DNA of 64,000 nt, taken from Patescibacteria group bacterium. GTDB taxonomy: Bacteria > Patescibacteriota > Minisyncoccia > Phycocordibacterales > PALSA-1337. The notes below the pieces were generated by a model. That model searched no databases, was not told the DNA's origin, and worked only from the letters and a program-made list of their open reading frames with translations. Shown here one piece after another: positions 17,651 through 57,867 of this stretch. The translations under genes were made by a program, and so were the position numbers. Every line of letters begins with the position of its first letter. Position 1 is the stretch's first letter. The stretch covers positions 19,851-83,850 of the forward strand of contig JBBTRB010000003.1 in the NCBI GenBank assembly GCA_038065395.1. Reading direction: 5' to 3'.

Positions 17651-18160
17651 ATGAAGATAAAAGTCATCAAACTTGGAACAGAGTGTGAAGACAAGGCCAC
17701 CAAAACCAAAGGTCGTGTCACACACTGGATATGTGATATGGAATATCGCATCGACTATCTGTTCCAACCGCACGGAACAAGCCCAGAAGACGGACAACCG
17801 ATCAAGAAGTTGTATCTGGAAACAGCGCGACTGCAATTCGAAGGTGAACCTTACGAAGAAGTGGAAGTCCCCGTGGAGATCCTTGGTACCCAGGTCACCG
17901 ACAAGGCCAGTGGCTTTACTGGAATGGCGGTATCCTTCCTCAGATCCATCAATGGGTGTTTCCATGTGTTCATCCAGCCATCAACGATCGTAGAGAAAAC
18001 CGGATGCCCTGTCGCCAAAACAGACTTCGACTTGCGAGAATGTGAAGGTGCCATGATCACACAATTACAGACAGAAGAGCTGGAACGAAGCCGAGTCACA
18101 ACGCCTTCGCCGGAGCCCTCTGATCACGACCGATTCCGACTCCGGAATCCTCTGGACTAG
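17651..18160 (+). CDS. hypothetical protein
   Basis: 169 aa ORF with balanced composition, a promoter-like TTGACA...TAATTAT upstream, and a terminator directly downstream. Confidence 0.45.
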   Translation: MKIKVIKLGTECEDKATKTKGRVTHWICDMEYRIDYLFQPHGTSPEDGQPIKKLYLETARLQFEGEPYEEVEVPVEILGTQVTDKASGFTGMAVSFLRSINGCFHVFIQPSTIVEKTGCPVAKTDFDLRECEGAMITQLQTEELERSRVTTPSPEPSDHDRFRLRNPLD

Positions 18161-18185: not shown

Positions 18186-18211
18186 CCCCGATATCTGTCG
18201 GGGTGTTTTTT
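18186..18211 (+). terminator. intrinsic terminator
   Basis: ccccga-tatctg-tcgggg followed by TTTTTT. Confidence 0.55.
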
Positions 18212-19409
18212 ATCTCCTCAAAACCTCATCTATCCTCTTTGCAATCTTCCTAAAATCTTTTTCCTTTTTGCCACGAGTCGTCTCTGCAGCAGTGCCGAGA
18301 CGGATACCGGATGGGTCAACTGCGCTGCGCGTCTCACCAGGGATGGTGTTCTTGTTCACGATGATGCCCACCTTCTCTAGTCGATCACTGGCATCTTTCC
18401 CTGAAATACCTTGCCCGCCCATCCAGGTGTCCATGAGGACAAGATGACTATCCGTGCCGCCAGAGATGATCTTCCAGCCGAGAGTCTTGAGTTCATCGGC
18501 CAATGCTGCAGCATTCTTCACCACCTGTGTAGCGTATTTTTTGAAAGCTGGAGTAGAGGCTTCTTTGAGTGCAACCGCTACCGCCGCGATCTGGTTGAGG
18601 TGAGGTCCACCCTGAAGTCCCGGGAATACCGCCTTGTCGATCAGCTCGCCGAAGGTCTGCTCTTTGCCTTTTGAATTTACGATCTTCTTATCAGTTCTTG
18701 AAAAGATCAGTGCACTGCGTGGACCACGGAGAGTCTTGTGTACCGTGGTAGTGACCACATCTGCATATGGGAATGGTGACGGATAGGCCTTGCCCGCAAC
18801 CAGTCCCGCGAAGTGCGACATATCCACCATCAGGATCGCACCACAGGCATCGGCGATCTCACGGAGCTTTTTGAAGTCTACCGTGCGCGGATATGCCGTG
18901 AATCCTCCGACGATGATCGCCGGCTTCTCGGACAGTGCCTTGGTCTTGAGATCTTCATAGTCGATAGTCTCAGTTTTGGGATCAACTCCGAACGGAACCT
19001 GGACCCACACCTTGCCGGTCATCGAAACTTTGTGACCATGAGTCAGATGTCCCCCGTGATCGAGTGACATACCCATGATCTTGCCTCCGAGCGGGACCAG
19101 TGCCAAATACACCGCCAGGTTCGCTGGTGATCCCGAGAGCGCCTGTACATTGACCTGCCACTCTGTAGGACTGAGACTGAATAATTTCAACGCGCGCTCT
19201 TGTGCCAGAGACTCGACCTTGTCGACGACCTGGTTACCACCATAATATCTCTTGCCTGGATAGCCTTCGGCGTATTTGTTGGTCAGTTCCGAACCCAATG
19301 CTTCGAGCACGTCTTTTGAGACTATGTTCTCTGAGGCAATGAGGTTGATGACGCTTTTCTGGCGCTTCTTCTCGGCATCTATGAGCTTTTTGATCTGGGC
19401 ATCTTTCAT
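18210..19409 (-). CDS. glyA: serine hydroxymethyltransferase
   Basis: 399 aa with TNKYAEGYPGKRYYGGNQVVD and the PLP-lysine context HKTLRGPR. Confidence 0.95.
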   Translation of the reverse strand: MKDAQIKKLIDAEKKRQKSVINLIASENIVSKDVLEALGSELTNKYAEGYPGKRYYGGNQVVDKVESLAQERALKLFSLSPTEWQVNVQALSGSPANLAVYLALVPLGGKIMGMSLDHGGHLTHGHKVSMTGKVWVQVPFGVDPKTETIDYEDLKTKALSEKPAIIVGGFTAYPRTVDFKKLREIADACGAILMVDMSHFAGLVAGKAYPSPFPYADVVTTTVHKTLRGPRSALIFSRTDKKIVNSKGKEQTFGELIDKAVFPGLQGGPHLNQIAAVAVALKEASTPAFKKYATQVVKNAAALADELKTLGWKIISGGTDSHLVLMDTWMGGQGISGKDASDRLEKVGIIVNKNTIPGETRSAVDPSGIRLGTAAETTRGKKEKDFRKIAKRIDEVLRR

Positions 19410-20568
19410 GGCGGCATTGTAGCATACCGATACAAAAAGGGGCCCACCTACTCAATCCTGAGAAGATGGGCCTTGAACTAAGAAGTTTTATGCAATCGTA
19501 TTGTTGAACTGAGAGACCCGAAACACTGAAGTCTGTAGATGCATGCCGGTGAGGAACCGTGGCGAGTAGTAAAACCGTAGCAAGATGTCACGGGGCACCT
19601 ATTGTTTCCAATTCAATCAGTCCGTCTCAGATAATACAACTTTCACAAGAATAGAAAAGGGCTCGCTGCACGAATGCAACGAGCCCGAATGCACGATCTA
19701 ACCAAGGATCGTAGTGGAGATGCGGCCCAATGGAACCGCGCAATATCTCGGCACAGACACCAGGAAGGGCGCTGACCGAGCTGCATCAGATTCAAACAAA
19801 GAACCGCACCTCCACATACAACTATAACCTATATGTGGAGAAAGTCAATGATTCAAGCTAGAACTTTAGTACACCTCTACCCCGTTCCACCCTTCGACCT
19901 ATAAAAGAAAGGGGGCTGCCATCTTGCGAATGGCAGCCCTTGTCTATACACATATGCTTTTAGACAGATCGATGCGCCAGAGAGTCCGAGTGATGCGCCG
20001 GGGGCGGTTGAGGGAACCTGAAGAGACCTAGTAGCTATAGGTCGGCATTACTCGGAACGACACGACCAGTCCGCCGACTATAATAGACCCTTCATCCCCA
20101 TGCAGTCAACAGGTTATCCACCGAGTTGTGCACAGGAACAATTCTCCGCAGGTTAAGAGCGTATCCACAATCTTCATATGCGAGGCAGCTTCGAGCGAAG
20201 ACTCGAGCCTTATTCCGGCTAACGAGGAGCGCGTGAATGTATCCTACATTCACAGCGTCCGAGTGAAGACGGGACAAGTGAATCTTATTGGATATAAGGT
20301 GAGAGTTTGAGCGAAGAAGATAACGAAGCAGATGGAGATTGTGGCCTAGCTCTAAGAAAAAAGACCGTCCCGAAGGAAGGTCTTGAGATTGGTCGGTGTC
20401 GAGGTCAGGTCTAACGGAACCTATGCAGCCAGGCTTGGTTGACCCAGGAAGGATCGGTCGAAGTACCCCCATATCTAAGTATTCTCACACAGGTCAAAGA
20501 AGATGGTTGCCACAATGAGCCCTCGACACCGGCCATAGAGAGTAGCGTGTTATGAGGATGAAGTCAAT
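19410..20568. other. ~1.15 kb ORF-poor hairpin-rich region; candidate large structured ncRNA or decayed element
   Basis: Only low-complexity short ORFs. Many perfect 6-10 bp hairpins. Contains one copy each of the 38-nt promoter-like motif (19878) and the 40-nt motif shared with 33783. Confidence 0.3.
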
Positions 20569-20991
20569 CTATTTCCCTGTACTACCAAAACCCCCTTGTC
20601 CTCTCGTTGTATCAGTAAGCTCTGAAACCTCCTCAATTTCCATCTGCTCCACTTTTTGGATAAGAATTTGTGCAACTTTATGACCAGCTTCAAACACATA
20701 TTCTTCTGCAGAAAGATTGATCGTACCAACAAGGACTTCACCCCTATATCCCGCATCAACCACTCCACCCAGTGTTTTGATACCCTCTTTTATAGCAATA
20801 CCACTCTTATCCCAGATCAGCCCCACATACCCTTCAGGAATCTCCAGAGCAATACCCGTACGAACAGCCTTTCGTTCCCCTGATTTCAGAATGGTCTTTT
20901 CCAGAGCATAGAGATCCAGGCCCGCATCATACTCATGTGCACGTGAGGGTAGCTTCGCGGCAGGATCAAGTTTTTTGATACGGAGGATCAT
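20569..20991 (-). CDS. dut: dUTP diphosphatase
   Basis: 140 aa with AGLDLYA, RTGIALEIPEGYVGLIWDKSGIA and GVVDAGYRGE motifs. Confidence 0.85.
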   Translation of the reverse strand: MILRIKKLDPAAKLPSRAHEYDAGLDLYALEKTILKSGERKAVRTGIALEIPEGYVGLIWDKSGIAIKEGIKTLGGVVDAGYRGEVLVGTINLSAEEYVFEAGHKVAQILIQKVEQMEIEEVSELTDTTRGQGGFGSTGK

Positions 20992-21043
20992 GATGCCTTT
21001 ATAGTATCACGACAATACATTTGGAAAATGATATATTTGTGCC

Positions 21044-21955
21044 ATGAAACCTACCGACCAAAGAACTCCCGATTCTCAATATCAACGCTTGCTTCGAGAT
21101 ATCCTAGAAAAGGGTGAACGAAGTAGTAGTCAGCAAGGAGTTGATACCATCAGTCTGATCGGTCCTTCACCACTTCGTTTCAAACTTGAGAATGGTTTCC
21201 CTATTATCAATGAACGCAACATGGCGCCGAAAGAGTCTGACCGGCTACCTGTGACTGTATGGAAGCAGGCTATAGGAGAAATATGCGCCTTTGCAAATGG
21301 TGTACGTACCCAGAAAGGTCTCGAAGAGTTTGGATGTCACTGGTGGAGCTCGTGGGTCACCGAAGAAAAATGCAAAAAGCGTGGTCTTGAAACTGGCGAT
21401 CTCGGACCAGGTTCGTATGGCGCAGCATTCCACGACTTTCCTACTGCCGAGGGTACGCCTTACAATCAATTCCAAAATATCATCGAACAGATCATCGAGT
21501 TCCCTCATCTGAAAACTCATTTCATTTCCCCTTGGATCCCTCAGTACATCATTCGAGGAACAGGTAAACAGCAAAAAGTAGTTGTATGTCCATGTCATGG
21601 CTGGATTCATTTTCGTGTACTGGATAACAAGTTGACCCTTCACATGTTCCAACGTTCCGGAGACGTACCAGTAGGCGTTCCTTCGAACATGGTTCAGTAT
21701 GCGGCCCTCCTTATGATGGTTGCGCAGGTTACCAACACTATCCCTTATGAATTCGTTCATAGCTTTTCGGATGCACATATCTTCGTAGATCAAATCCCTG
21801 CAGTCGAGACGATGCTTGCACGTGAACCAAAACCATTTGCAACCATGAAGATCGATACCTCTGTCAAAGACTTTTTTGAGTTCAGAAAAGATCATTTCAC
21901 TCTCGAAGATTACAATCCTCATCCAGGAATAAAAGGTATTCCTGTTGCAATATAA
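21044..21955 (+). CDS. thymidylate synthase (ThyA) family protein, divergent
   Basis: CPCHGWIHFRV (catalytic Cys), FQRSGDVPVGVPSNMVQY (R, S, D, N conserved), DLGPGSYG and HPGIKGIPVAI. Phosphate-binding Arg positions appear substituted (by-eye alignment). Confidence 0.75.
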   Translation: MKPTDQRTPDSQYQRLLRDILEKGERSSSQQGVDTISLIGPSPLRFKLENGFPIINERNMAPKESDRLPVTVWKQAIGEICAFANGVRTQKGLEEFGCHWWSSWVTEEKCKKRGLETGDLGPGSYGAAFHDFPTAEGTPYNQFQNIIEQIIEFPHLKTHFISPWIPQYIIRGTGKQQKVVVCPCHGWIHFRVLDNKLTLHMFQRSGDVPVGVPSNMVQYAALLMMVAQVTNTIPYEFVHSFSDAHIFVDQIPAVETMLAREPKPFATMKIDTSVKDFFEFRKDHFTLEDYNPHPGIKGIPVAI

Positions 21956-22008
21956 GGGGATAAAAAGCCTTAAATTAAGATGCAAATTAGGATATAATAA
22001 GATTCTCA

Positions 22009-22497
22009 ATGAATCGTTACATAAACCTTGCGAATGTTCGGGAAGAAGAACAGCTGAAGGTCATGGCCGAGATTAATATTCAAGGTCATTGTCCTTTTTG
22101 TACTGAAAATATACAGAAATATCACAAAAAACCCATAATCAAGGAAGGAAAGTATTGGTTTTTAACAGAAAATCAGTGGCCTTATACAAATACCAAACAT
22201 CAACTTTTGGCAATTCATAAAAAACACATAGAACATATTACCGAGATGGAAAAGGAGGCTGGAGCAGAATTAATAGAACTTTTTAACGAAGAATCCTTAA
22301 AAAGAAATATTATTGGTGGTGGAATAGCAATACGATTTGGAACCAATCCAGATAAAGGTAATTATGGCAGTACTGTTGCACATATTCATGCCCACTTAAT
22401 TGAACCAGATTTGGAAGCTCTAAAATCTGATGAATCTTGGAAATTCAAGTTTGGCCAACCAAAAAACTACCAGAAAGGAAAAAGGAAGGATGATTGA
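22009..22497 (+). CDS. HIT superfamily protein, GalT-branch-like
   Basis: HCPFC zinc knuckle plus VAHIHAHLIEP histidine triad; 162 aa. Confidence 0.55.
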   Translation: MNRYINLANVREEEQLKVMAEINIQGHCPFCTENIQKYHKKPIIKEGKYWFLTENQWPYTNTKHQLLAIHKKHIEHITEMEKEAGAELIELFNEESLKRNIIGGGIAIRFGTNPDKGNYGSTVAHIHAHLIEPDLEALKSDESWKFKFGQPKNYQKGKRKDD

Positions 22498-22563
22498 CAA
22501 AGTCTTTTTTCTCTATAGTATTGCGATTGGACTGTAGTAAACAATTGAAAACGAAAGGTATGT

Positions 22564-23160
22564 ATGAACTCTTTGTCACTCCCTGTTATTCTGGGACTTT
22601 CTGAGCATCAGGTTCAGACTCTCGTTAACTGCCGAACACTCAAACAGTATGCGAGCATGATTGCGGATTACTTGGCGGGCAAATGCCCTTTCTGTGATCC
22701 GCTCGACAGTAAAAATCGCATTCTTGTCCAGCACGGGAATACTCCCGAAACTCGCTGGAGAATCTGGGAAAATCCATTCCCACTCAAACACACGAGCCTT
22801 CATCTGGTCATGGCGCCAGAACGGCACGTTTCTCCGAATGCAGATATCCTTCCTACGGACATGGAAGCGATGACGCACCTTTTTCTCTGGGCCAAGAATG
22901 GCTATGGTGCCAGAGGTGGTTGCCTTGCAATGAGATTCGGCCCACCGAACTTCAATGCGGGTAGCGTTCTTCATTTGCACGCCAACATCATTGTTCCTGA
23001 TGGCACAGGTAGAGTCCATGTGACTTTGGCCAAAGAAAATAAAGAGATCACCGAAAATGTTCGACGGATGCATGTTTTCGAACGCCTTCGTACAAACAAA
23101 ACGACTCCGAAATACCTGAGCCCTGATGAGCGTGAACTAGTCAAAGGGCGTCTTGAATAG
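22564..23160 (+). CDS. HIT superfamily protein, GalT-branch-like (tandem paralog)
   Basis: KCPFCDP plus GSVLHLHANIIVP triad; 198 aa. Confidence 0.55.
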   Translation: MNSLSLPVILGLSEHQVQTLVNCRTLKQYASMIADYLAGKCPFCDPLDSKNRILVQHGNTPETRWRIWENPFPLKHTSLHLVMAPERHVSPNADILPTDMEAMTHLFLWAKNGYGARGGCLAMRFGPPNFNAGSVLHLHANIIVPDGTGRVHVTLAKENKEITENVRRMHVFERLRTNKTTPKYLSPDERELVKGRLE

Positions 23161-23177
23161 CCGTTTGGATGACTCTA

Positions 23178-23208
23178 CCTCTTGCGAGAAAATCGCGGGA
23201 GGTTTTTT
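23178..23208. terminator. bidirectional intrinsic terminator
   Basis: cctcttgcga-gaaaa-tcgcgggagg (with G-U pairs) followed by TTTTTT, between converging genes. Confidence 0.5.
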
Positions 23209-24043
23209 ATTTTACATCAACAAAAACAATTTCTACCCCCTGGCTTCGTAGAATACTTTCTCCATCGAGCACTTTATATCCTGTACGATAATAAAGTCGC
23301 CGAATACCTGCATATGCGAGTTGCTTTGCACATGGAGGGCACGGAAACGCTTCCGCGTACACGTCTGCCCCCTTGAGAGATATTCCCTCTTTTGCAGCCT
23401 CAGCCACCAGTCCCGCCTCTGCATGTAGAGCAAGAGATGATTCTAGATGAATCCCGCTTTTAAAATTACTTCGAGGATCACCTTGATCATACGCTATCTG
23501 ATCCGAAGGAACGTATCTGTTGTGCGTCTTGAGGATAACCTTACCATCTTTCACTGCAATAGCCCCCAACCGACGCCACCAATCTTTCGCTTTCACACCC
23601 TCTTCTTCCGTCACGCTCATCATTTTCTTATCAAATTCATCCTCACTTATCGTAATATCTGGAGAAACCTGGATTGGTTCAACTGCGGTTTTTTTATCCC
23701 ATCGAAGGAAAATGGTATCTATTTCTACTCGATTTTTTGAAAAATATCTTTCTTTTATTTCAGACGTCACATCATCATTTGGTATGCATATATGAAGATC
23801 TACAAATTCAGGATTTCCAATGTCCTCCTTATGCAAAATCCTTACATCCTTGAAAAGATTCCAAGCTGAAACAGCTTGTACTATCAATTCTGGATTCAAT
23901 GCTCGAATATCTTTTTTCAAATGTTCAAACTCAGAAATAAAATCTAACCCTACCACGTAGAGAATATTCGCATCTGCATGCTTTTTAAAAAACGTTCTAT
24001 ATCCCTCATGAAGTACAGGAATATATGCAATGATTATTTTCAT
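23207..24043 (-). CDS. CMP/dCMP-type zinc deaminase with an N-terminal domain of unknown function
   Basis: C-terminal HAEAGLVAEAAKEG...PCPPCAKQLAYAGIRRLYY (H(A)E...PCxxC). Start chosen at MKIIIAYIP adjacent to the upstream stop. Confidence 0.65.
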   Translation of the reverse strand: MKIIIAYIPVLHEGYRTFFKKHADANILYVVGLDFISEFEHLKKDIRALNPELIVQAVSAWNLFKDVRILHKEDIGNPEFVDLHICIPNDDVTSEIKERYFSKNRVEIDTIFLRWDKKTAVEPIQVSPDITISEDEFDKKMMSVTEEEGVKAKDWWRRLGAIAVKDGKVILKTHNRYVPSDQIAYDQGDPRSNFKSGIHLESSLALHAEAGLVAEAAKEGISLKGADVYAEAFPCPPCAKQLAYAGIRRLYYRTGYKVLDGESILRSQGVEIVFVDVK

Positions 24044-24044
24044 A

Positions 24045-24668
24045 TTATTTTCTCTTCCCTCCCGTATGTCCCAAGGCATCACTGATCATGTCTGCAAGCT
24101 TGGGAACGATGGCTTTCTCGAAGCGTTTGGCAAGTTTGAGTTGCATCAGACGAATCTTTGCACTTGTAGAAGTAGTTGCGCGTGGTTCCAAGATTTTTAC
24201 CTCTCCACACAACTTTTTCATTTCATTCATTTTGGCCTTACTATACTTTGCAACTGTTTCTTGCGTAACAATGAGTACATCAGGCTGAACAACGCGTATG
24301 AGTTCCCATTGCGGCATTCCCTCTTCTTTAACGGTCACGATGTCGACAGGGCGAAGATGAGTAACCATCTCCAAACGTTCCTTTTCTGGAACCAGTGGAC
24401 GATCTGGGCCTTTGCGGGCACGAACCTTCTTGTCACTATCAACTCCAACCACAAGGAGATCCCCATGCTTCTTGGCTTCTTCGAAGTAACGAGCATGACC
24501 AATATGAACCATATCGTACGTTCCTTGAGTAAGAACGATCCTCAGACCAATACCTTTACAATGATCGACGATTTTCTTGAGATGTTTGTAATCAGAAATA
24601 AAACGCTCATTAAAGTTTGAACCGTGTCCGAATATACCTCCATTAGTGAAAAATCCTTTGGTAGTCAT
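24045..24668 (-). CDS. cytidylyltransferase-like nucleotidyltransferase (HldE domain II / RfaE-like)
   Basis: VLTQGTYDMVHIGHARYFEEAKKHGDLLVVGVDSD resembles the TNGCFDxxHxGH adenylyltransferase core. Confidence 0.65.
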   Translation of the reverse strand: MTTKGFFTNGGIFGHGSNFNERFISDYKHLKKIVDHCKGIGLRIVLTQGTYDMVHIGHARYFEEAKKHGDLLVVGVDSDKKVRARKGPDRPLVPEKERLEMVTHLRPVDIVTVKEEGMPQWELIRVVQPDVLIVTQETVAKYSKAKMNEMKKLCGEVKILEPRATTSTSAKIRLMQLKLAKRFEKAIVPKLADMISDALGHTGGKRK

Positions 24669-24727
24669 GATGGTGTTTATGAGTGTATCTTAACTTATCA
24701 TATTACACCTCATGCTACAATAATCCT

Positions 24728-25237
24728 ATGCAAACCTTCATCATCGCCGCCCTGTCAGCAGATGGATACATCGCTCGAGATGCACGACACGCTTCGCTCG
24801 CCTGGACGAGCAAAGAAGACAAGCGACGGTTCATCGAGCTGACCAAACGCGCTGGAGTTGTGGTGATGGGCTCGACTACCTATGCAACACTCCAGCGACC
24901 GCTCAAAGAACGCGTCAATATCGTCTACTCTACTTCGAAGAAGTTCGAGGGTGCCGAGACGACCAACAAACCCCCTTTCGAACTTCTGGCCGAGCTCAAG
25001 GAACGCGGCTTCAAAGAAGTAGCCATCTGTGGAGGTGCCCATATCTACACCATGTTCATGAAGGCCAAGGTCGTCGACAAACTCTACCTCACCATCGAAC
25101 CGATCATCTTTGGTTCAGGAGTCAGACTCTTCAACGAAGACCTGACCCATCATCTCAAACTCGTTGCCTGCGGACAGACCGAGGGTGGTGCGATCCTTCT
25201 GGAATACGATGTACTTCAGTCAGGAAACGTTGAGTGA
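24728..25237 (+). CDS. dihydrofolate reductase family protein
   Basis: MQTFIIAALSADGYIA...VVVMGSTTYATLQRPLKERVNIVYS matches DHFR N-terminal and NADPH-binding patterns. Confidence 0.65.
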   Translation: MQTFIIAALSADGYIARDARHASLAWTSKEDKRRFIELTKRAGVVVMGSTTYATLQRPLKERVNIVYSTSKKFEGAETTNKPPFELLAELKERGFKEVAICGGAHIYTMFMKAKVVDKLYLTIEPIIFGSGVRLFNEDLTHHLKLVACGQTEGGAILLEYDVLQSGNVE

Positions 25238-28113: not shown

Positions 28114-28965
28114 CTACTTACAGAGATCGAGTACGTTCTCGAAGAGAGCACAGACTGTCATGGGTCCCACTCCACCTGGAACAGGAGTGATCATCGCGAC
28201 AACATCTGCAACTTCTCTCGACACATCACCGACCATCTTCCCTTCCGATGAGGTATTGATACCTACATCGATAACGATCTGGCCTTCCCGCACATGATCC
28301 TTACGAATAAGACCGGCTGACCCGGCTGCCACGATTATAACGTCGGCGGCCTGTGTTTCTTTCACGAGATCTGGAGTGCCCCGATGACATACCGTTACCT
28401 GTGCACCAGCCTGCCTACACATCTCTGCTACCGGAGTTCCTACCAGGAGCGATCGTCCGATAACCGCCACCTTCTTCCCTGAAATGGGTACGTGGTAAAA
28501 CGCCAGCAATTCTCGGATACCTCTGGCTGTTGCGGGCATGACTTTTGCACCTGTAGTCAGACCATCTGCATCCTTTGCAGGGTCGATGTGTGCGATGACC
28601 TTGTCTCGGTTCATATGTGGAGGCAATGGAAGTTGAACTATGAGGGCATGTATCGATGCATCATCATTGCACTCTTGGATTTTGGAAATGAGCTCGGCTT
28701 CAGAAATAGTTTCGGGTAGCTGAATGTGTTTTTCCTGCACACCGATCTTGGCGGCAAATCGTCTTTTTGCATTGATAAAAGCCGTAGAGTCCTCGCGTGT
28801 ACCGACCTGAATGATCGCCAGAGTGGGCACAAAAGAAAGCGCCTCTATCTTCTTGATGAGTTCGGGGACTAGAGCATCACGGACAGTACGACCAGAGAGG
28901 ATGGTTGCGGGCATATGGGAGAGCGTAGCATTAAAATAATGCGAATCAAAAATTAATATATTCAC
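28114..28965 (-). CDS. folD: bifunctional methylenetetrahydrofolate dehydrogenase/cyclohydrolase
   Basis: 283 aa with GRSLLVGTPVAEM and VIDVGIN...GDV motifs. Confidence 0.9.
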   Translation of the reverse strand: MNILIFDSHYFNATLSHMPATILSGRTVRDALVPELIKKIEALSFVPTLAIIQVGTREDSTAFINAKRRFAAKIGVQEKHIQLPETISEAELISKIQECNDDASIHALIVQLPLPPHMNRDKVIAHIDPAKDADGLTTGAKVMPATARGIRELLAFYHVPISGKKVAVIGRSLLVGTPVAEMCRQAGAQVTVCHRGTPDLVKETQAADVIIVAAGSAGLIRKDHVREGQIVIDVGINTSSEGKMVGDVSREVADVVAMITPVPGGVGPMTVCALFENVLDLCK

Positions 28966-36051: not shown

Positions 36052-36684
36052 CTACGCCGTGCCATGTTGTGTTGATTCGAGATAGTCAGCGATAACCTTG
36101 TCATACTCGGACGTATGCCGGATCGCTTCGGCAGCAAGATGGTGTCGGAGTTGCCGGCTTGTTGTCGGACCTCTATTGTCGATCATTGCATTTCGGATCA
36201 GGTCGTAATGTTCGATCTTGGAAGCCACGGTTACGAACCTATGGTTCTTTGCAGCACTTCGCAACAACGTAGGTCCACCAATATCGATCTCCTCGATAGC
36301 CTCATCGAATGTGACCCCCGGCTTCTGTATCGTCTTTTCGAAGGGGTAGAGATTTACCACCACCAAGTCGATAGGTTCCATTCTCAGGACATTCACGCTT
36401 TCTTCATCATCACGATGATGACGTCGGTAGAGCACTCCTCCCATGAGTTTCGGATGCATCGTCTTCACTCTCCCACCCAAACACTCAGGGAAACCAGTGA
36501 TCTCAGAGACATCTTCCACGTGGATCCCTGCATCGCGAAGCACCTTCGCAGTGCCGCCCGTGGAGATGATCTTGGTGTCGTATCTTGTTTTCAAGAATTT
36601 TGCGAAATCCACAACGCCCCTCTTATCCGACACAGAGATAAGTGTCGTCGCTATCCGTACAAAACCTTCGTCGATCTCACTCAT
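36052..36684 (-). CDS. stand-alone IMP cyclohydrolase (PurH N-terminal MGS-like) domain protein
   Basis: ISVSDKRGVVDFAKFL...ISTGGTAKVLRDAGIHVEDVSEITGFPECLGGRVKTMHPKLMGGVL...VVVNLYPF...IDIGGPTLLRSAAKN. No AICAR transformylase domain follows. Confidence 0.7.
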   Translation of the reverse strand: MSEIDEGFVRIATTLISVSDKRGVVDFAKFLKTRYDTKIISTGGTAKVLRDAGIHVEDVSEITGFPECLGGRVKTMHPKLMGGVLYRRHHRDDEESVNVLRMEPIDLVVVNLYPFEKTIQKPGVTFDEAIEEIDIGGPTLLRSAAKNHRFVTVASKIEHYDLIRNAMIDNRGPTTSRQLRHHLAAEAIRHTSEYDKVIADYLESTQHGTA

Positions 36685-52723: not shown

Positions 52724-53365
52724 ATGACTCCAGCTGCCAAAATCAGGTTTGTGAAAAACCGAATTGAAGATCAGGTCGCCATAAGCCCGAAAGGGCCTAT
52801 TGTTCTGCCTGTGCATGATATTTTCACTAATTCTTTTACCTTTCTGGCCAAGGAGCAATATTTGATACTCAAAAAACTTCAGGAGGACGGCTACATAAAA
52901 GGCCTCTTTCCTCTTGAGAAAAAGGAGGTCTGGTTTGAAATGACCGGCAAGCCTCTCGATCCGTTCGGCCTCATCGCCATGAATGCTGCCAAAGGCAGGA
53001 AGCCCGCGCGAGTGGCTGTAAAAGATACTCTGCTCATGACCAAGGAGCTTGAGCCCGACTTCGAGGTGAGCGGTCTTGCCTCATATTCTGACGGGACCAT
53101 TCGCTACAAAGACACGATCGTCCCTCTCCGTGGCCAGATCAAGGATTTGTGCCGCCTGTTCATGCGCAATCCGAAACGGCTTATTACCCGCGAGGACATC
53201 AAGGAGAACATCATCGCCGCCGACAAGCGCAAATCTGTTCCGAAAATCACCATTTCCAAATATGTAAGCGAGCTTCGTAATTCATTGAGAGTTCATTTCA
53301 AGAAAGACGTGATCTACAGCCAGAAAGATGAGGGCTGGTACTTCGACCCGAGCAAAAAGAGCTAG
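52724..53365 (+). CDS. putative winged-helix (OmpR/CadC-type) DNA-binding regulator
   Basis: C-terminal LITREDIKENII...ISKYVSELRNSL...WYFDP resembles a trans_reg_C domain. Confidence 0.4.
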   Translation: MTPAAKIRFVKNRIEDQVAISPKGPIVLPVHDIFTNSFTFLAKEQYLILKKLQEDGYIKGLFPLEKKEVWFEMTGKPLDPFGLIAMNAAKGRKPARVAVKDTLLMTKELEPDFEVSGLASYSDGTIRYKDTIVPLRGQIKDLCRLFMRNPKRLITREDIKENIIAADKRKSVPKITISKYVSELRNSLRVHFKKDVIYSQKDEGWYFDPSKKS

Positions 53366-53466
53366 AAATCCGATTCATTTCTGAATATTGAATGAGCGCA
53401 CTCACCGAAACTGTGAGTGCGTTTTCATATTGAATACGCGCATTACTAATCTAGCGAAATTACTCT

Positions 53467-53739
53467 ATGACAAGAAAATTAAAGCCTCGGTCCCACCAGG
53501 ACGACGAGGCATCAGTGTTTACTACTTACGACCTTGGAGTATCGGCGGCACTCTTGTGCCTCGGGTACAAGCTAATACGCTTGGACCGCGACGATCCTCG
53601 CAAGGCCCTTTTCGTATTCAGGAAAGAAGCGGATATCGATACGTACGCCAATCAGTATTTTTCAGATCAGCTCAAAGTCAAAGCTCGGTCGTTCTTTGAC
53701 AGCATCAAGGCGTTGAAGAATAAGCTCTACTCCGAATAG
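53467..53739 (+). CDS. hypothetical protein
   Basis: 90 aa. Confidence 0.35.
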   Translation: MTRKLKPRSHQDDEASVFTTYDLGVSAALLCLGYKLIRLDRDDPRKALFVFRKEADIDTYANQYFSDQLKVKARSFFDSIKALKNKLYSE

Positions 53740-53741
53740 CT

Positions 53742-54008
53742 ATGCTGCTTTTGGACGTGGACATCAAAAAGTTCCAAGAGCTTTACAAGGCTCGCTTTGG
53801 AATGGACATAAGCAAAGAAGAAGCCTTAGCAAAAGGCACTCAGCTTGTGCGCCTGATGGAGCTCGTCTATAAGCCAATGTCTCAAGAAGAACACGAGCTC
53901 ATCCACAAGCGACGGCTCGAAACGCTTCCCTTACTAGCACATAAATTACAAAATCATGAATCAGAATCTAGAGTCACTTACAATCAAAGACGAGCTCGAC
54001 AAAATTAA
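53742..54008 (+). CDS. hypothetical protein
   Basis: 88 aa; overlaps the start of the next ORF. Confidence 0.3.
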   Translation: MLLLDVDIKKFQELYKARFGMDISKEEALAKGTQLVRLMELVYKPMSQEEHELIHKRRLETLPLLAHKLQNHESESRVTYNQRRARQN

Positions 54009-55317
54009 GGAACGCATTACCCCGCCTGAACCGATCACCCTTGATCAGGTCCGACATGTCCTGGACCTCACCATCAAAAAAGATGATGGAAATAAAATCA
54101 TCACGTTTCTTGCAATGCTTGCTGCATACACCGACAATGCGCAATTCAATATCAGTTTTAATGCTCCCTCATCGTCCGGCAAGAGCTTTATTCCTCTCGA
54201 GATCTCAAATCTCTTTCCACAGGAGGATGTTATGAAGCTCGCCGGGGCATCGCCCACATCATTTCTTCACGAGAGCGGTGTGTATAAAAAGGAAACGAAT
54301 GAGCGCTTTATCGACCTATCAAGGAAAATCATCATCTTCCTCGATATGCCGCATGCAACGCTTTTAACAAAGCTCCGATCTCTATTATCTCATGATGAGA
54401 AAGAGACGAGGCACAAGATTACGGATAAAACGGAGAAAGGCGGTACACGCACAAAGACCGCCGTCATCAGAGGCTTCCCGTCGGTCATATTCTGCTCGGC
54501 CAATGCCAAAATGGACCAGCAGGAAATGACCCGCTTTCTACTTCTCAGTCCTGAAATAAATCAGGAGAAGATACTTGCCGGAATCCACCAGTCCTCTCGC
54601 AAGGAATCCGACAAGAAGAAATATTATAAAGAGCTCAATGAGAATCCTCTGCGTAAAGCGCTAATCGAGCGCATAGCTTTAATCAAGGCTGCCGGTGTCG
54701 ACGAGATTATCATTGAGGACGAGAAAGGCGTTCAGCAAAGATTTCTCGCTCACATACAAAATCCGCAACCGAGAAATCAGCGAGACATTAAACGTATTTA
54801 CTCAATCATCAAATCAGTTGCTCTTTTGAATGTCTGGCATCGCAAGCGCCAAGGCACTACGCTCTACGCATCCGAACTAGACATCGATACCGGCTTTGAG
54901 ATTTGGGATAAGATATCGCTCTTTCAGGAGCTTGAAATATCGCCATACCTCTACGAATTCTATTCGCAGATTATTCTTCCTTTGTGGAATCGGGACCAGA
55001 TCGACGAGTTCGGTGATCCTGTGGCTGAAGAAAAGAAGATAGGCGTTACCCGTCAAGACATGCTCAAGCAATACGCCCACGTCTATGGCGGCAACCTTGG
55101 CATGTTCAGGCTTCGCTATGACTATCTGCCGAACATCGAATCGGCTGGCCTTATCTTCCAGGAACCTGATCCGAATGATCGTCGGCAACTCCTGACATAC
55201 CCAACTATCGCCGCTAAGAGGCTTGAGAAAACGGAGGAAATACATAGTGCGTACGAGCCGGGGGTAAATATTACCAACGTTGAAAATGAGATAAAAGCCG
55301 AGGACGTTCCGTTCTAA
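53956..55317 (+). CDS. P-loop NTPase, putative replication/mobilisation protein of the integrated element
   Basis: Walker A NAPSSSGKS; 453 aa. Confidence 0.5.
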   Translation: MNQNLESLTIKDELDKIKERITPPEPITLDQVRHVLDLTIKKDDGNKIITFLAMLAAYTDNAQFNISFNAPSSSGKSFIPLEISNLFPQEDVMKLAGASPTSFLHESGVYKKETNERFIDLSRKIIIFLDMPHATLLTKLRSLLSHDEKETRHKITDKTEKGGTRTKTAVIRGFPSVIFCSANAKMDQQEMTRFLLLSPEINQEKILAGIHQSSRKESDKKKYYKELNENPLRKALIERIALIKAAGVDEIIIEDEKGVQQRFLAHIQNPQPRNQRDIKRIYSIIKSVALLNVWHRKRQGTTLYASELDIDTGFEIWDKISLFQELEISPYLYEFYSQIILPLWNRDQIDEFGDPVAEEKKIGVTRQDMLKQYAHVYGGNLGMFRLRYDYLPNIESAGLIFQEPDPNDRRQLLTYPTIAAKRLEKTEEIHSAYEPGVNITNVENEIKAEDVPF

Positions 55318-55386
55318 GGGACTTGCAATTACCCCACGAAGAAGGTAACACAGCAACACCCCTTAGAATTAACATTACCCAATTAT

Positions 55387-56973
55387 ATGGCTACAAACGT
55401 TGAATACTTCATGTATGCCCGCAAATCCTCTGAGTCCGAGGATCGGCAGGAGCAATCAATCGAGGATCAGATAAATCGATTAAAAGAACGAGCTAATTCC
55501 CTTGGTATTTCAGTCAAAGAAATCTTGACCGAAGCGAAGTCGGCCAAACAGCCAGGACGACCTGTATTCAACGATATGTTGAACCGAATCAAGAAAGGTG
55601 AAGCTCAAGGAATTCTCTGTTGGCAAATAAACCGCCTCTCACGTAATCCCATTGATAGTGGCGCGCTCTCGTGGATGCTTCAGCAGGGTGCTTTGAAAGC
55701 TATACAGACGATGGAACGAGAGTACTTACCGGAGGACAATGTACTTCTCTTTAGCGTTGAGAGCGGAATGGCGAATCAGTTCATCATCGAGCTCCGCAAA
55801 AACACAAAGCGAGGCATGCATGGTAAAGCAGATCGTGGATGGTTTCCCTCAAAAGCTCCAGCTGGATACGTCAACGAACGACTCGAACACACGATTCAGC
55901 CTGATCCAGAACGTTTCGACCTCATCAGAAGGATGTGGGACCTTATGCTTACCGGAAATTACACGCCAGTGTCGATAGCTGAGATCGCAAGCAAGGAATG
56001 GGGTTATCGGTCCCTGAAAAGTAAGCGGAGTGGCGGAGTCGAGATGGCTCCAAGTGTAATTTATAAAATGTTTAAGAACATTTTCTATACGGGAATGTTT
56101 GAGTGGGGTAAGAAAATCTATAAAGGAAATCATAGACCGATGATCACGCTTGAGGAGTATGATCGAGTCCAGGCTATCTTCGGCAGGACCGGAAAGCCTC
56201 GAGGTCAAACGCACGAGTTCGCATTCACCGGACTTATTCGCTGCGGTCTGTGCGGTGCGATGTATACCGGTACTGAAAAAACCAAGACAATAAAGAAAAC
56301 CGGTGACCTCAAAACATACACCTACTACCATTGTTCAGGCCACAAGAAAGGCGTGCCATGTCCAAAGCGAAATCCAATCAATCTTATTGACCTCGAACAG
56401 CAGATCGAGCTTCTGCTTGAGGAGTACACGATACTCCCCGAATTTCAGACCTGGGCTATTGAGGCTTTGAATCGTAACAACGATAAGGAAATCGAGGAGC
56501 GTACAAAGATTTATGAGATGCAGCATAAGACTGTCGTCGAGTCGCAGACTGAGCTCGATAACCTAACTAAGATGCGTTACCGCGATCTTATCGATGACGA
56601 CACCTTCGTCAAAGAGCGTGACATCTTAAAGGATAAGATTGCCCGATTACAGGCGAAACTCCGAGAAACCGAGGGACGTGCTTCAAAGTGGCTGGACCTT
56701 ACTGAACAGGCGTTTAGCTTTGCCTGCTACGCTAGAAAAGAGTTTATTATGGGCGATCTTCAGCGAAAGCGTGAGATATTCTCATCACTTGGCCAAAACT
56801 TCTATCTCAAAAGTGGCAAAGTCTTTATCACTGGCAATGAATGGTTCCAGCCAATCAAAGAAGCATACCCTGAATTTAGGGCTAAATTTGAGAGGTTAGG
56901 ACTGAGAGAATACGCCTCTGTTGAGGCACGAAATGTTGCTTTTGCAACACTCATTCTCGAATGGGGTGCCTAA
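55387..56973 (+). CDS. large serine recombinase
   Basis: N-terminal resolvase catalytic domain YARKSSESEDRQEQSIEDQ, recombinase domain, zinc ribbon CGLCGAMYTG...YYHCSGH, C-terminal coiled coil. Confidence 0.85.
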   Translation: MATNVEYFMYARKSSESEDRQEQSIEDQINRLKERANSLGISVKEILTEAKSAKQPGRPVFNDMLNRIKKGEAQGILCWQINRLSRNPIDSGALSWMLQQGALKAIQTMEREYLPEDNVLLFSVESGMANQFIIELRKNTKRGMHGKADRGWFPSKAPAGYVNERLEHTIQPDPERFDLIRRMWDLMLTGNYTPVSIAEIASKEWGYRSLKSKRSGGVEMAPSVIYKMFKNIFYTGMFEWGKKIYKGNHRPMITLEEYDRVQAIFGRTGKPRGQTHEFAFTGLIRCGLCGAMYTGTEKTKTIKKTGDLKTYTYYHCSGHKKGVPCPKRNPINLIDLEQQIELLLEEYTILPEFQTWAIEALNRNNDKEIEERTKIYEMQHKTVVESQTELDNLTKMRYRDLIDDDTFVKERDILKDKIARLQAKLRETEGRASKWLDLTEQAFSFACYARKEFIMGDLQRKREIFSSLGQNFYLKSGKVFITGNEWFQPIKEAYPEFRAKFERLGLREYASVEARNVAFATLILEWGA

Positions 56974-57037
56974 TGGGATTCGAACCCATGCTGCGGCTTT
57001 CACAGAGCCGAGTGCTAACCATTACACCATAGGCACC
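56962..57037 (-). tRNA. tRNA-His (GTG) with encoded G-1 and CCA
   Basis: Manual fold: 8-bp acceptor stem with G-1:C73, anticodon loop CUGUGAA, T-loop TTCGAAT, 3' CCA encoded. Confidence 0.85.
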
Positions 57038-57142
57038 ATATAACTACCTGCTCATTTATACCAGATTTACGGCATAAGTACAGATGAGACTATAGTTGAC
57101 TTCCCCTTCATAACGAGTAATGTTGTCATTAGAAAGGCTCTT

Positions 57143-57616
57143 ATGAAAAAAATTGAAAATGCGAAATGGGAGGATATTCTCTTCAAAATCGGTGGAGTGA
57201 TCGGAACGCTAGGTACACAACCTCATGAATTCGAGATCGAATTCATTGATAATGAATTCTATATAGGAGATCTTGAAGGAGGCGGCAACCGACTGATCTT
57301 CCGATCGCCAGCCGTAAGCAAATTCATCACTCCTCAAGGTCATGGAATGGCGATAATTTCTTCCAACCGTGAAGCATGGTTGGAAGATCCTGCGTTTTAT
57401 CAATTTATTTTTTACAGTCTTGATAAAAAAGCCAGTGTACGGAGGATGTGCAAGATTACCTATGCCCGTAGCGAGAGACGCAATGTTTTCAGATCCATAG
57501 AAGTTGGAGAGATGGAATATTTGAAATTCTACAAATTTAAGGAGGTCAAAGATGCTGAGACTTTTATGGAGGCCACTCTCCTGTATCTCAAAATACTCGA
57601 CGCGAGCATCGCCTAA
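57143..57616 (+). CDS. hypothetical protein
   Basis: 157 aa with a terminator downstream. Confidence 0.4.
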   Translation: MKKIENAKWEDILFKIGGVIGTLGTQPHEFEIEFIDNEFYIGDLEGGGNRLIFRSPAVSKFITPQGHGMAIISSNREAWLEDPAFYQFIFYSLDKKASVRRMCKITYARSERRNVFRSIEVGEMEYLKFYKFKEVKDAETFMEATLLYLKILDASIA

Positions 57617-57724: not shown

Positions 57725-57808
57725 GCACGGGTGGCGAAATTGGTAGACGCACTACCTTGAGGTGGTAGCGCCCATTTGGGTATGGAGGTTCGAGTCCTCT
57801 CCCGTGCA
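57725..57808 (+). tRNA. tRNA-Leu (GAG), class II with long variable arm
   Basis: Acceptor GCACGGG/CCCGTGC, anticodon loop TTGAGGT, variable arm gcccatttgggt, T-loop TTCGAGT. Confidence 0.85.
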
Positions 57809-57867
57809 CAGCATTTAGTATGCCTGAGGGCAAATCAACTTCTTGACTTGCGTCCAGGGACACAAAA

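Follow-up and report, generated by a model that had tools for sequence, protein, structure and literature searches.

Our analysis of a window of 64,000 nucleotides from a Patescibacteria (CPR) genome revealed a cluster of seven genes, whose positions and identities, as proposed in an earlier note, were borne out by profile searches and motifs. The cluster begins with dut, encoding a dUTPase (20569..20991, minus strand; PF00692 101.7 bits; TIGR00576 145.6 bits, cutoff 102.55), and thyA, encoding a Patescibacteria-type thymidylate synthase (TS; 21044..21955, plus strand; PF00303 208.8 bits; TIGR03284 170.7 bits, cutoff 108.35). These are followed by genes for two HIT proteins, HIT1 (22009..22497) and HIT2 (22564..23160), both on the plus strand, a two-domain deaminase (23207..24043, minus strand) and a CTP_transf_like nucleotidyltransferase (24045..24668, minus strand; PF01467 79.5 bits). 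A DHFR gene (24683..25237, plus strand, probable start ATG 24728) closes the cluster, and residues 20-137 of its product match model positions 4-114 of PF00186 (65.3 bits). Also in the window are glyA (serine hydroxymethyltransferase, SHMT; 18210..19409, minus strand; PF00464 552.5 bits), 1.6 kb upstream, and folD (methylene-THF dehydrogenase/cyclohydrolase; 28114..28965, minus strand; PF02882 173.8 bits; PF00763 105.6 bits), 3 kb downstream. The Pfam/TIGRFAM cutoffs were passed by ThyA, Dut, DHFR, SHMT and FolD. No phage or defence matches were found at the locus, which is a cellular housekeeping one.

HIT1 is a single-domain zinc-knuckle protein with the motifs C28PFC31 and H125-I-H-A-H (HIHAHLI). 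HIT2, with C41PFC44 and H-L-H-A-N (HLHANII), is a lineage-specific HIT1 paralog with a C-terminal helical tail, and comparison of the two families by hhalign gave a probability of 99.9% (E = 1.8e-31). The CPFC zinc knuckles noted before are present in both tandem proteins; their placement in a GalT/Ap4A-phosphorylase branch was supported by none of the tests run, and the HIT proteins are not assignable to the GalT branch. HIT1 showed weak Pfam matches to HIT and DcpS_C under the gathering scores, HIT2 had no Pfam match, and neither protein matched a curated family above that family's own cutoff. The third motif residue varies, being H in HIT1, N in HIT2 and Q in most single-copy orthologs, while an N-terminal NxRxxxQ helix and an RFG motif are specific to the family.

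The mechanical reading frame of the deaminase starts at GTG 24082, and ATG 24043, which fits the orthologs, is the probable start. A zinc deaminase domain of the dCMP type, marked by HAE and PCPPC, makes up its C-terminal part (PF00383 45.8 bits, residues 150-265). The extra N-domain described earlier was found as an extension of about 135 aa outside this match; this part (approximately 23639-24043) has the motifs PVLHEGY, KDIR and FLRW and is predicted to adopt a cytidylyltransferase fold. The nucleotidyltransferase contains HIGH and TTSTSAKI motifs and has PDB matches to ECT, HldC and 3glv. Its previous description as HldE-domain-II-like agrees with its top family, TIGR02199 (rfaE_dom_II), although the score of 105.9 bits is under the cutoff of 181.5. 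Its stop codon (24045-24047) and the deaminase ATG (24043) show that the two genes are translationally coupled.

About 80 of 84 related loci, which belong to one phylum, were chosen by ThyA similarity and represent few independent events, share a core in which thyA->HIT is convergent with a nucleotidyltransferase->deaminase pair. This conserved core is new. The median gap is 21 nt from thyA to HIT and 6 nt, stop to start, from nucleotidyltransferase to deaminase (85 loci). While dut and DHFR shift among at least four arrangements, thyA->HIT and nucleotidyltransferase->deaminase never part, and the linkage holds down to 33% ThyA identity. HIT genes always lie 3' of thyA or DHFR; HIT1 is the universal partner following thyA, and HIT2 is in only about 25 of the 84 loci. 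DHFR-HIT fusions are encoded at three loci (L054, L094, L096), whose ThyAs fall into two lineages far apart (71% and 33-36% identity). The cluster is set in conserved housekeeping synteny with argS and rplK-nusG-secE.

Residues of ThyA were mapped with a HMMER alignment to solved TS structures and a MAFFT alignment to E. coli ThyA, and both agree. As claimed earlier, the catalytic Cys in CPCH (C184, equivalent to C146), R166 (R204), S167, D169, N177 (N215) and H207 are retained, and so are E58, W80, W83, Y94, H147 and the C-terminal PVAI. The reported loss of phosphate-clamp arginines is likewise real in both alignments, with R21 replaced by Q30, R126' by K157 and R127' by T158. Absent from the earlier note were the replacements of Y209 by F247 (relatives have Y in 80 of 121) and of F176 by S214, as well as three insertions of about 11, 9 and 7 residues. 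Across the family the folate pocket is shifted at I79 (W/F), L143 (V), L172 (V) and F176 (S/A). In established TS structures R21 and R127' cap the phosphate site on its outer side, and R21 of canonical TS helps the C-terminus to close over the active site. Judged from these residues, ThyA probably binds dUMP more weakly, for which R171, a conserved Arg of the 7-residue insertion, perhaps compensates in part; we do not infer new chemistry. In PDB, PHROGs and NCBIfam alike, ThyA scored highest against TS models; within the window thyA is single copy, and a ThyX motif was looked for there and not found.

The Q21/T127 state is invariant among 120 close ThyA homologs, and a clade at 36-57% identity likewise has no Arg at 21 and 127, with R or K at 126. 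Overall, ThyAs of this one conserved cluster show the arginine states QRT, QKT, PRT, RRT, PRR, VRR, NRG and RRR, a spread suggestive of drift where replacement is tolerated. The same HIT and deaminase partners are found beside ThyAs keeping R127 (L090, L093), R21 (L092) or all four arginines (L096), so the arginine state is uncoupled from the partners and arginine loss is no functional switch. Replacement of R127' is tolerated in L. casei TS, where R179A/T/K/E variants are active (PMC6005164, citing Santi 1990 and Kawase 2000). The Vibrio VAAP-clade TS has a natural Gly at R127' and is active with higher Km and lower efficiency, a case its authors described as the first in which a phosphate-binding arginine is naturally replaced (PMC6005164). 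All 121 family members retain C146, H147, E58, Y94, R166, S167, D169, N177, H207 and A263, and 119 retain I264. ThyA is furthermore the best-conserved protein of the cluster (62-95% identity over 80 genome loci, L005-L084), as expected of an essential enzyme.

We consider it probable that the cluster is a module supplying dTMP through an ordinary, folate-dependent thymidylate cycle in which the TS is divergent. Such a cycle had been one option of the earlier note and is supported by the intact catalytic and folate-closing residues, with Asn177 for uracil, and by genomic context. DHFR adjoins or overlaps thyA in an operonic manner, at variable positions, in 73 of 84 loci, which fits DHF production and hence reductive methylation; dut occurs in 56 loci, tmk lies within 10 kb in 43, and glyA, here in the window together with folD, keeps its synteny with the cluster in 20-21 related loci. 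In the proposed cycle, Dut would convert dUTP to dUMP, and the dCMP-type deaminase would turn a deoxycytidine nucleotide into a deoxyuridine nucleotide as the other source of dUMP. ThyA would then methylate dUMP reductively to dTMP with 5,10-methylene-THF, yielding DHF, which the neighbouring DHFR would reduce to THF. GlyA would recharge THF to methylene-THF, FolD would interconvert one-carbon folates, and in relatives the neighbouring Tmk would take dTMP to dTDP. The HIT protein(s) and the HldE-II-like transferase might be accessory nucleotidyl-transfer enzymes that interconvert phosphorylated or activated forms of pyrimidine deoxynucleotides to feed the cycle, and the deaminase N-domain might bind nucleotides for regulation or dimerise with the transferase. 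Against this assignment, R21 and R127' are otherwise invariant among 59 RRR-type cluster representatives and both are missing here, R126 is Lys, Y209 Phe and F176 Ser, and HIT and nucleotidyltransferase, which are outside the textbook cycle, accompany thyA and the deaminase gene in about 80 of the 84 loci, in tightly coupled pairs and with three fusions of HIT to DHFR.

The alternative raised earlier, an altered substrate or a pathway for a modified pyrimidine or sugar-nucleotide, is weakened because the substitutions are lineage-wide and include the tolerant R127', because partners are the same whatever the arginine state, and because the cluster contains neither a glycosyltransferase or kinase nor any other modification enzyme; the conserved HIT and nucleotidyltransferase partners leave it some probability. 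A plain thymidylate cycle had been expected to show four conserved phosphate-binding arginines and no glycosyl or modification enzymes; such enzymes are indeed absent from the cluster, but the arginines are not all conserved.

It is unlikely that HIT and the transferase are unrelated to dTMP synthesis and owe their place to inherited synteny in small, streamlined genomes. In that case the transferase product could be a sugar or alcohol nucleotide for the cell envelope, and HIT could do generic housekeeping of the Hint type. The few independent events among the loci, the housekeeping surroundings and the transferase's top scores, to heptose-1-P and phospho-alcohol transferases, agree with this, but the core pairs are inseparable while DHFR and dut are mobile, their gaps are tight, the linkage reaches distant ThyAs, DHFR-HIT fusions occur in two lineages, and neither heptose nor teichoic acid genes were found near the cluster. 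Still more doubtful is a carrier-linked pathway. Here the transferase would link a pyrimidine deoxynucleotide with either a phospho-acceptor or a second nucleotide (e.g. dCTP + X-P -> dCDP-X, or ATP + dCMP -> A-pp-dC), the conjugate would be deaminated with the transferase-fold N-domain gripping the 'handle', ThyA, its phosphate pocket opened by loss of the R21 and R127' caps, would methylate it, and HIT would hydrolyse or phosphorolyse the product to free dTMP or dTDP. HxHxQ in most single-HIT orthologs, as in transferase/phosphorylase HITs, the transferase/deaminase coupling and the DHFR-HIT fusions favour such a scheme; however, the partners also accompany ThyAs with four arginines or R127, tmk and dut imply free dTMP and free dUMP, and HIT1 has the hydrolase-type HxHxH. 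TS is not known to act on diester- or pyrophosphate-linked dU, which also counts against the scheme. That ThyA is a dUMP/dCMP hydroxymethylase or other non-TS fold member making a modified base is very improbable: loss of R21 could in principle let water in and the folate pocket is altered (F176S, I79W), but position 177 is invariantly Asn, not Asp, PVAI, W80, W83, Y94 and H147 are kept, the operonic or overlapping DHFR is required only where DHF is made, hypermodification kinases and glycosyltransferases are absent, the housekeeping locus is without phage or defence matches, and this is the sole TS found in the window of an organism that needs dTMP.

Compared with canonical ThyA (E. coli, L. 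casei, human; EC 2.1.1.45), the enzyme of the preferred ordinary cycle shares fold and family (PF00303/TIGR03284), the Cys-His pair, E58, Y94, R166/S167, D169, N177, H207, the C-terminal closing segment and genomic coupling to DHFR, SHMT and dUTPase. It differs in R21 (Q here, P/A/V/I in relatives), R127' (T), R126' (K here), Y209 (F here), F176 (S/A), I79 (W/F), L143 (V) and the three added segments. The Vibrio parahaemolyticus VAAP-clade TS likewise combines natural R127' loss with an altered folate-site residue (PMC6005164). It lost one arginine, whereas the Patescibacteria clade lost two, over a much broader radiation.

Like this ThyA, the T4 enzyme gp42 (a dCMP hydroxymethylase) and phage dUMP hydroxymethylases have the ThyA fold, use methylene-THF and catalyse through a covalent Cys. 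In gp42 the R21 equivalent is reportedly Lys, not Arg, and dCMP hydroxymethylase has Asp where this ThyA has Asn177; the phage enzymes make no DHF, are without the TS C-terminal closure and reside in phage modification modules, none of which was seen here. The HIT proteins share the HxHxx nucleophile His and CxxC zinc knuckle with Hint/Fhit hydrolases, the Ap4A phosphorylase Rv2613c and GalT, and are single-domain, unlike GalT and Apa1/2. The deaminase has the HAE and PCxxC zinc core of dCMP deaminases (ComEB, T4 Cd, cyanophage S-TIM5), which are its top PDB matches, and its scores lie far under the equivalog cutoffs for ComEB and for the anti-phage family. An extra nucleotide-binding-type domain is also present in dCTP-acting deaminase-fold enzymes (anti-phage dCTP deaminase, vertebrate CDADC1), but here it is a predicted cytidylyltransferase fold, not P-loop kinase-like or a second deaminase domain. 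The transferase shares HIGH and (R)TxxSTS motifs with HldE-II/HldC, ECT, TagD and CCT and has the HldE-II domain layout, N-terminal linker included. It differs from them in that its gene is in every case coupled in translation to a deaminase gene, and in that no heptose pathway genes lie nearby. Physically coupled thymidylate-cycle enzymes have precedents in protozoan and plant bifunctional DHFR-TS and in the T4 dNTP-synthetase complex. By analogy, the DHFR-HIT fusions and tight operons suggest a comparable multi-enzyme unit, in which, unlike DHFR-TS, the fusion partner of DHFR is HIT rather than TS.

Our analysis suggests that the seven genes at positions 20569-25237 probably provide a CPR bacterium with an ordinary folate-dependent thymidylate cycle, run by a ThyA of a divergent subfamily. 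The identity of five of these genes is firm and that of two is generic. Family models identified dut (20569-20991, minus strand) above their cutoffs, and thyA (21044-21955, plus strand) was identified by PF00303 (208.8 bits; GA 24.3) and TIGR03284 (170.7 bits; cutoff 108.35), its product falling below every cutoff of the narrower PRK01827 sub-models. Two zinc-knuckle HIT proteins follow on the plus strand, HIT1 (22009-22497; motifs CPFC and HIHAH) and HIT2 (22564-23160; CPFC and HLHAN), the latter without a Pfam family. On the minus strand lie a two-domain deaminase (23207-24043; dCMP_cyt_deam_1 at residues 150-265 of the ORF starting at 24082) and an HldE-II/ECT-type nucleotidyltransferase (24045-24668; PF01467, with TIGR02199 below its cutoff), and a DHFR gene (24728-25237, plus strand; PF00186) completes the set. 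The cluster is flanked by glyA (18210-19409) and folD (28114-28965), and lies between argS on one side and rplK-nusG-secE on the other. The nearest relative by ThyA among 80 related genome loci was "Parcubacteria bacterium C7867-002" with 95% identity. The 1.16 kb gap between glyA and dut (19410-20568) yielded nothing in Rfam even at E = 1, holds no convincing ORF and has no counterpart in related loci except for 27 nt in L005, and a structured RNA was ruled out on the missing Rfam match and the missing conservation. A GC-rich hairpin that runs into T-rich sequence occurs at least once in this gap. Between argS and glyA we also found a 169-aa ORF (17651-18160) that is shared with the closest relative (L005) alone and did not match any family in Pfam and NCBIfam searches.

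When the six-frame ORFs of 84 related loci were searched with profiles, a conserved core order emerged, in which thyA is followed by one HIT gene, or by HIT and HIT2, facing the deaminase and transferase genes on the opposite strand. Of these loci, 83 carry HIT, 81 the deaminase and 78 the transferase, with misses mostly at contig ends. DHFR and dut shift between at least four positions; the thyA-HIT and transferase-deaminase pairs were never split. Spacing within the pairs is tight: the median distance between a stop and the next start is 21 nt for thyA-HIT and 6 nt for transferase-deaminase, the latter two being 1 nt apart in the window. The linkage is kept down to 33% ThyA identity (L085, L086, L088, L090, L092, L093, L094 and L096). 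Two distant ThyA lineages, with 71% and 33-36% identity to the window ThyA, have single ORFs in which DHFR forms the N-terminal part and a HIT domain of the thyA-linked family the C-terminal part (L054:10918-11877, L094:1975-2910 and L096:2444-3625). Literature searches returned no description of this gene cluster, and two phylum-wide couplings, one between thyA/DHFR and a new HIT family and one that ties a dCMP-type deaminase to both a nucleotidyltransferase and a predicted transferase-fold domain, are apparently undescribed. Other genes were seen near the cluster in part of the loci. A CofE-like gene (F420-0:gamma-glutamyl ligase, PF01996) occurs in 19 of them, e.g. L039:12878-13633, and could encode a glutamyl ligase acting on a folate-type cofactor in organisms that would not be expected to make F420. 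In some lineages deoxynucleotide-salvage genes join the cluster (L094:4583-5002, L086:7192-7749, L001:12016-12588 and L003:12638-13747), namely a member of the nucleoside 2-deoxyribosyltransferase family, AAA_17/AAA_18 (dNMP-kinase-like) proteins and a long DCD-family dCTP deaminase.

Residues of ThyA were mapped with HMMER alignments to solved TS structures and with MAFFT alongside E. coli ThyA, and both agree. They bear out what the earlier note had read by eye, namely the replacement of R21 by Q30, R126' by K157 and R127' by T158, and the retention of C146/H147, R166 (R204 in the window ThyA), S167, D169, N177 and H207. The four phosphate-binding arginines R21/R126'/R127'/R166 thus read Q/K/T/R and are not conserved as a full set. 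Also kept are E58, W80, W83, Y94 and the C-terminal PVAI, the last identical to E. coli; C146, H147, E58, Y94, D169, N177 and H207 are invariant across 121 family members. Further changes are Y209 to F247, F176 to S214 and three insertions. Q21 and T127 are invariant in 120 homologs of 72-89% identity; within the family, position 126 is R in 100 members and K in 21, and at position 209 Y (80) outnumbers F (41). A wider search of 1.84 billion representative proteins yielded about 45 clusters at 36-57% identity with a non-Arg residue at 21 (P/A/Q/V/I) and T at 127 (rarely S/N/G), and more remote TSs carried arginine at all three positions 21, 126 and 127 (R,R,R). This clade also shows shifts in the folate pocket (I79 to W/F, L143 to V, L172 to V), with a variable F176. 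R171, the Arg of a 7-residue insertion, is common in the clade though not universal, and it may, as an unproven possibility, compensate for the lost arginines.

ThyA keeps every catalytic residue, together with the Asn that specifies uracil and the C-terminal closing segment, so that the protein is predicted to be a working dTMP synthase. Its genomic context argues for the same reading. DHFR adjoins or overlaps thyA in 73/84 loci, where its one obvious job would be the recycling of TS-made DHF, and this operonic arrangement lends indirect support to DHF production. Furthermore, dut is present in 56 loci and tmk (thymidylate kinase) lies less than 10 kb away in 43. The window holds a single thyA and no ThyX motif, and PHROGs matches were to TS families alone, with no defence or phage signal. 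In addition, R127' is experimentally dispensable, since R179A/T/K/E mutants of the L. casei enzyme are active (PMC6005164).

The HIT proteins belong to the HIT superfamily by fold and by the nucleophilic His in HxHxx. Neither of the window pair ends this motif in Q; most single-copy orthologs of other lineages have HxHxQ. Lineages with one HIT are the majority and usually carry HxHxQ, and those with two carry HxHxH plus HxHx(N/H/Q). HIT2 is a paralog of HIT1 (hhalign probability 99.9%) that is restricted to certain lineages. No curated family was matched above cutoff, with only weak matches to HIT, DcpS_C, DUF4931_N and CwfJ_C_1 in Pfam and to HinT and ATP adenylyltransferase in NCBIfam. Against the PDB, the family profile matched Hint/Fhit-type proteins best (E ~3e-4; GalT E ~0.9), and an AF2 model (pLDDT 82) was about equally similar to zinc-HITs, the Rv2613c Ap4A phosphorylase, Hint2 and GalT. 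The assignment to a GalT/Ap4A-phosphorylase branch in the earlier note is therefore not justified; there is no significant GalT/Apa profile match, and the proteins are single-domain (150-200 aa) rather than of two-half-barrel architecture. They constitute a new single-domain zinc-knuckle HIT subfamily. A longer HIT2 of 256-363 aa with a large internal insertion was observed in some lineages, at L003:9990-10994 and in L031, L026 and L032. The L003 protein has Y-x-Y ("VYAE") at the usual HxH position and its HLHAN motif inside the insertion, and that of L031 has two HxHxx motifs (HFHAQ, HWHAE). These long forms may have a tandem-HIT architecture as in GalT.

The deaminase matched PF00383 with 45.8 bits (GA 25) and carries LHAEAG and PCPPCA motifs, i.e. 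the HAE/PCxxC signature of zinc deaminases. Its best PDB matches were dCMP deaminases and its core appears to be of this type; it is not a ComEB equivalog (40.9 vs a cutoff of 219), and its weak scores to ComEB and anti-phage dCTP deaminase are about equal. The N-terminal domain has no Pfam or PDB sequence match, and a homolog search with this domain alone gave 6 matches. Its predicted fold is of the cytidylyltransferase-like (HUP) kind, a Rossmann-like fold marked by HxGH after strand 1; the motif of this domain itself reads H12-x-G14-Y15. The motifs are in register with those of the adjacent transferase family, but the hhalign comparison was not significant (probability 2.6%, E = 0.018), so that sequence homology of the two was rejected and the predicted fold remains as evidence of kinship. 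The transferase is a highly conserved PF01467 member (79.5 bits) with conserved HIGH and TSTS motifs. It scored 105.9 bits against TIGR02199 (HldE domain II), below the equivalog cutoff of 181.5, and GmhA, HldE-I and GmhB were found neither in the window neighbourhood nor among the frequent annotated neighbour families of related loci. The DHFR matched PF00186 with 65.3 bits (GA 25) and also RibD_C with 61.7 bits; its orthologs are annotated DHFR_1.

A less ordinary route to dUMP/dTMP, coupled to nucleotidyl transfer, would have thymidylate made on an activated, carrier-linked deoxynucleotide, and we consider it unlikely. The transferase would join a pyrimidine deoxynucleotide either to another nucleotide or to a phospho-acceptor, the deaminase would act on this conjugate while its transferase-fold domain holds the handle, the arginine-depleted ThyA would methylate it, and the thyA/DHFR-linked HIT would release dTMP or dTDP. 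A strict coupling of arginine loss to HIT and transferase did seem perfect in 95 loci, where the sole ThyA found with R,R,R (L089) had neither partner. It was broken by L096, which a further look-up revealed to encode an R,R,R ThyA followed by the DHFR-HIT fusion and a convergent deaminase, and by L090 and L093, which keep R127, and L092, which keeps R21. ThyAs of the P,R,R, V,R,R and R,R,T types were likewise found within clusters, which indicates that the partners predate, or are independent of, the arginine loss. The loss itself behaves like drift at tolerant positions. Thus, of the two readings offered in the earlier note, the ordinary dTMP cycle is favoured by residues and by the DHFR, dut and tmk context, and the hint of an altered substrate weakens with the uncoupling. 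In a weaker form of the same idea, HIT and transferase may be unrecognised obligatory enzymes of dUMP/dTMP supply in the phylum.

A hydroxymethylase is highly improbable, as is a pathway for a modified pyrimidine, which was part of the second option of the earlier note, and this reading was rejected: dCMP enzymes have Asp at the N177 position, where Asn is invariant here, the C-terminus is kept, DHFR is coupled, the cluster holds no kinase, glycosyltransferase or other modification partner, and the PHROGs matches named only TS families. A bypass of tmk by HIT phosphorolysis straight to dTDP was ruled out by the nearby tmk in the 43 loci. A riboflavin reading of deaminase, reductase and transferase (split RibD plus RibL) was rejected on the dCMP-deaminase matches, the lack of RibD among PDB matches and the DHFR_1 annotation of the reductase orthologs, and a phage or defence origin on PADLOC, which gave no match except a weak one to the deaminase domain, and on searches with HIT1 and with the N-terminal domain of the deaminase, which found no homologs in phages.

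Two further regions of the window were noted. A large serine recombinase (55387-57036; 528 aa; Resolvase, Recombinase and Zn_ribbon_recom) ends in or beside tRNA-His (56962-57036, minus strand), with tRNA-Leu at 57725-57809 and unannotated ORFs at 53956-55317 and 57143-57616, and 52724-57616 as a whole looks like a mobile element integrated at a tRNA gene. At 36052-36684 a 210-aa protein combines an MGS-like domain with only the first ~60 AICARFT/IMPCHase residues, and it looks like a stand-alone IMP-cyclohydrolase-type PurH fragment, although the genome would be expected to have no purine synthesis.

Patescibacteria rely on nucleotide scavenging, and the linkage of HIT, transferase and deaminase therefore marks candidates for missing deoxypyrimidine steps. 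The association of thyA/DHFR with an uncharacterised HIT family and with a transferase/deaminase pair throughout Patescibacteria is a more useful outcome than the clamp loss, and should the enzymes prove ordinary, a conserved CPR "dTMP operon" would still have been annotated cleanly. The natural double clamp loss, for its part, offers material for studying dUMP binding by TS and TS-targeted selectivity. The four-arginine phosphate clamp is regarded as a hallmark of TS. According to Kawase et al. in 2000, R23 is reportedly also fairly tolerant, and R218 (the equivalent of R166) alone essential. The TS of Vibrio parahaemolyticus works with a natural Gly at R127', at a higher Km, and this single Arg to Gly change in a Vibrio-related clade is the sole natural exception that we found described (PMC6005164); here, two of the four clamp arginines appear to be replaced across a whole bacterial radiation.
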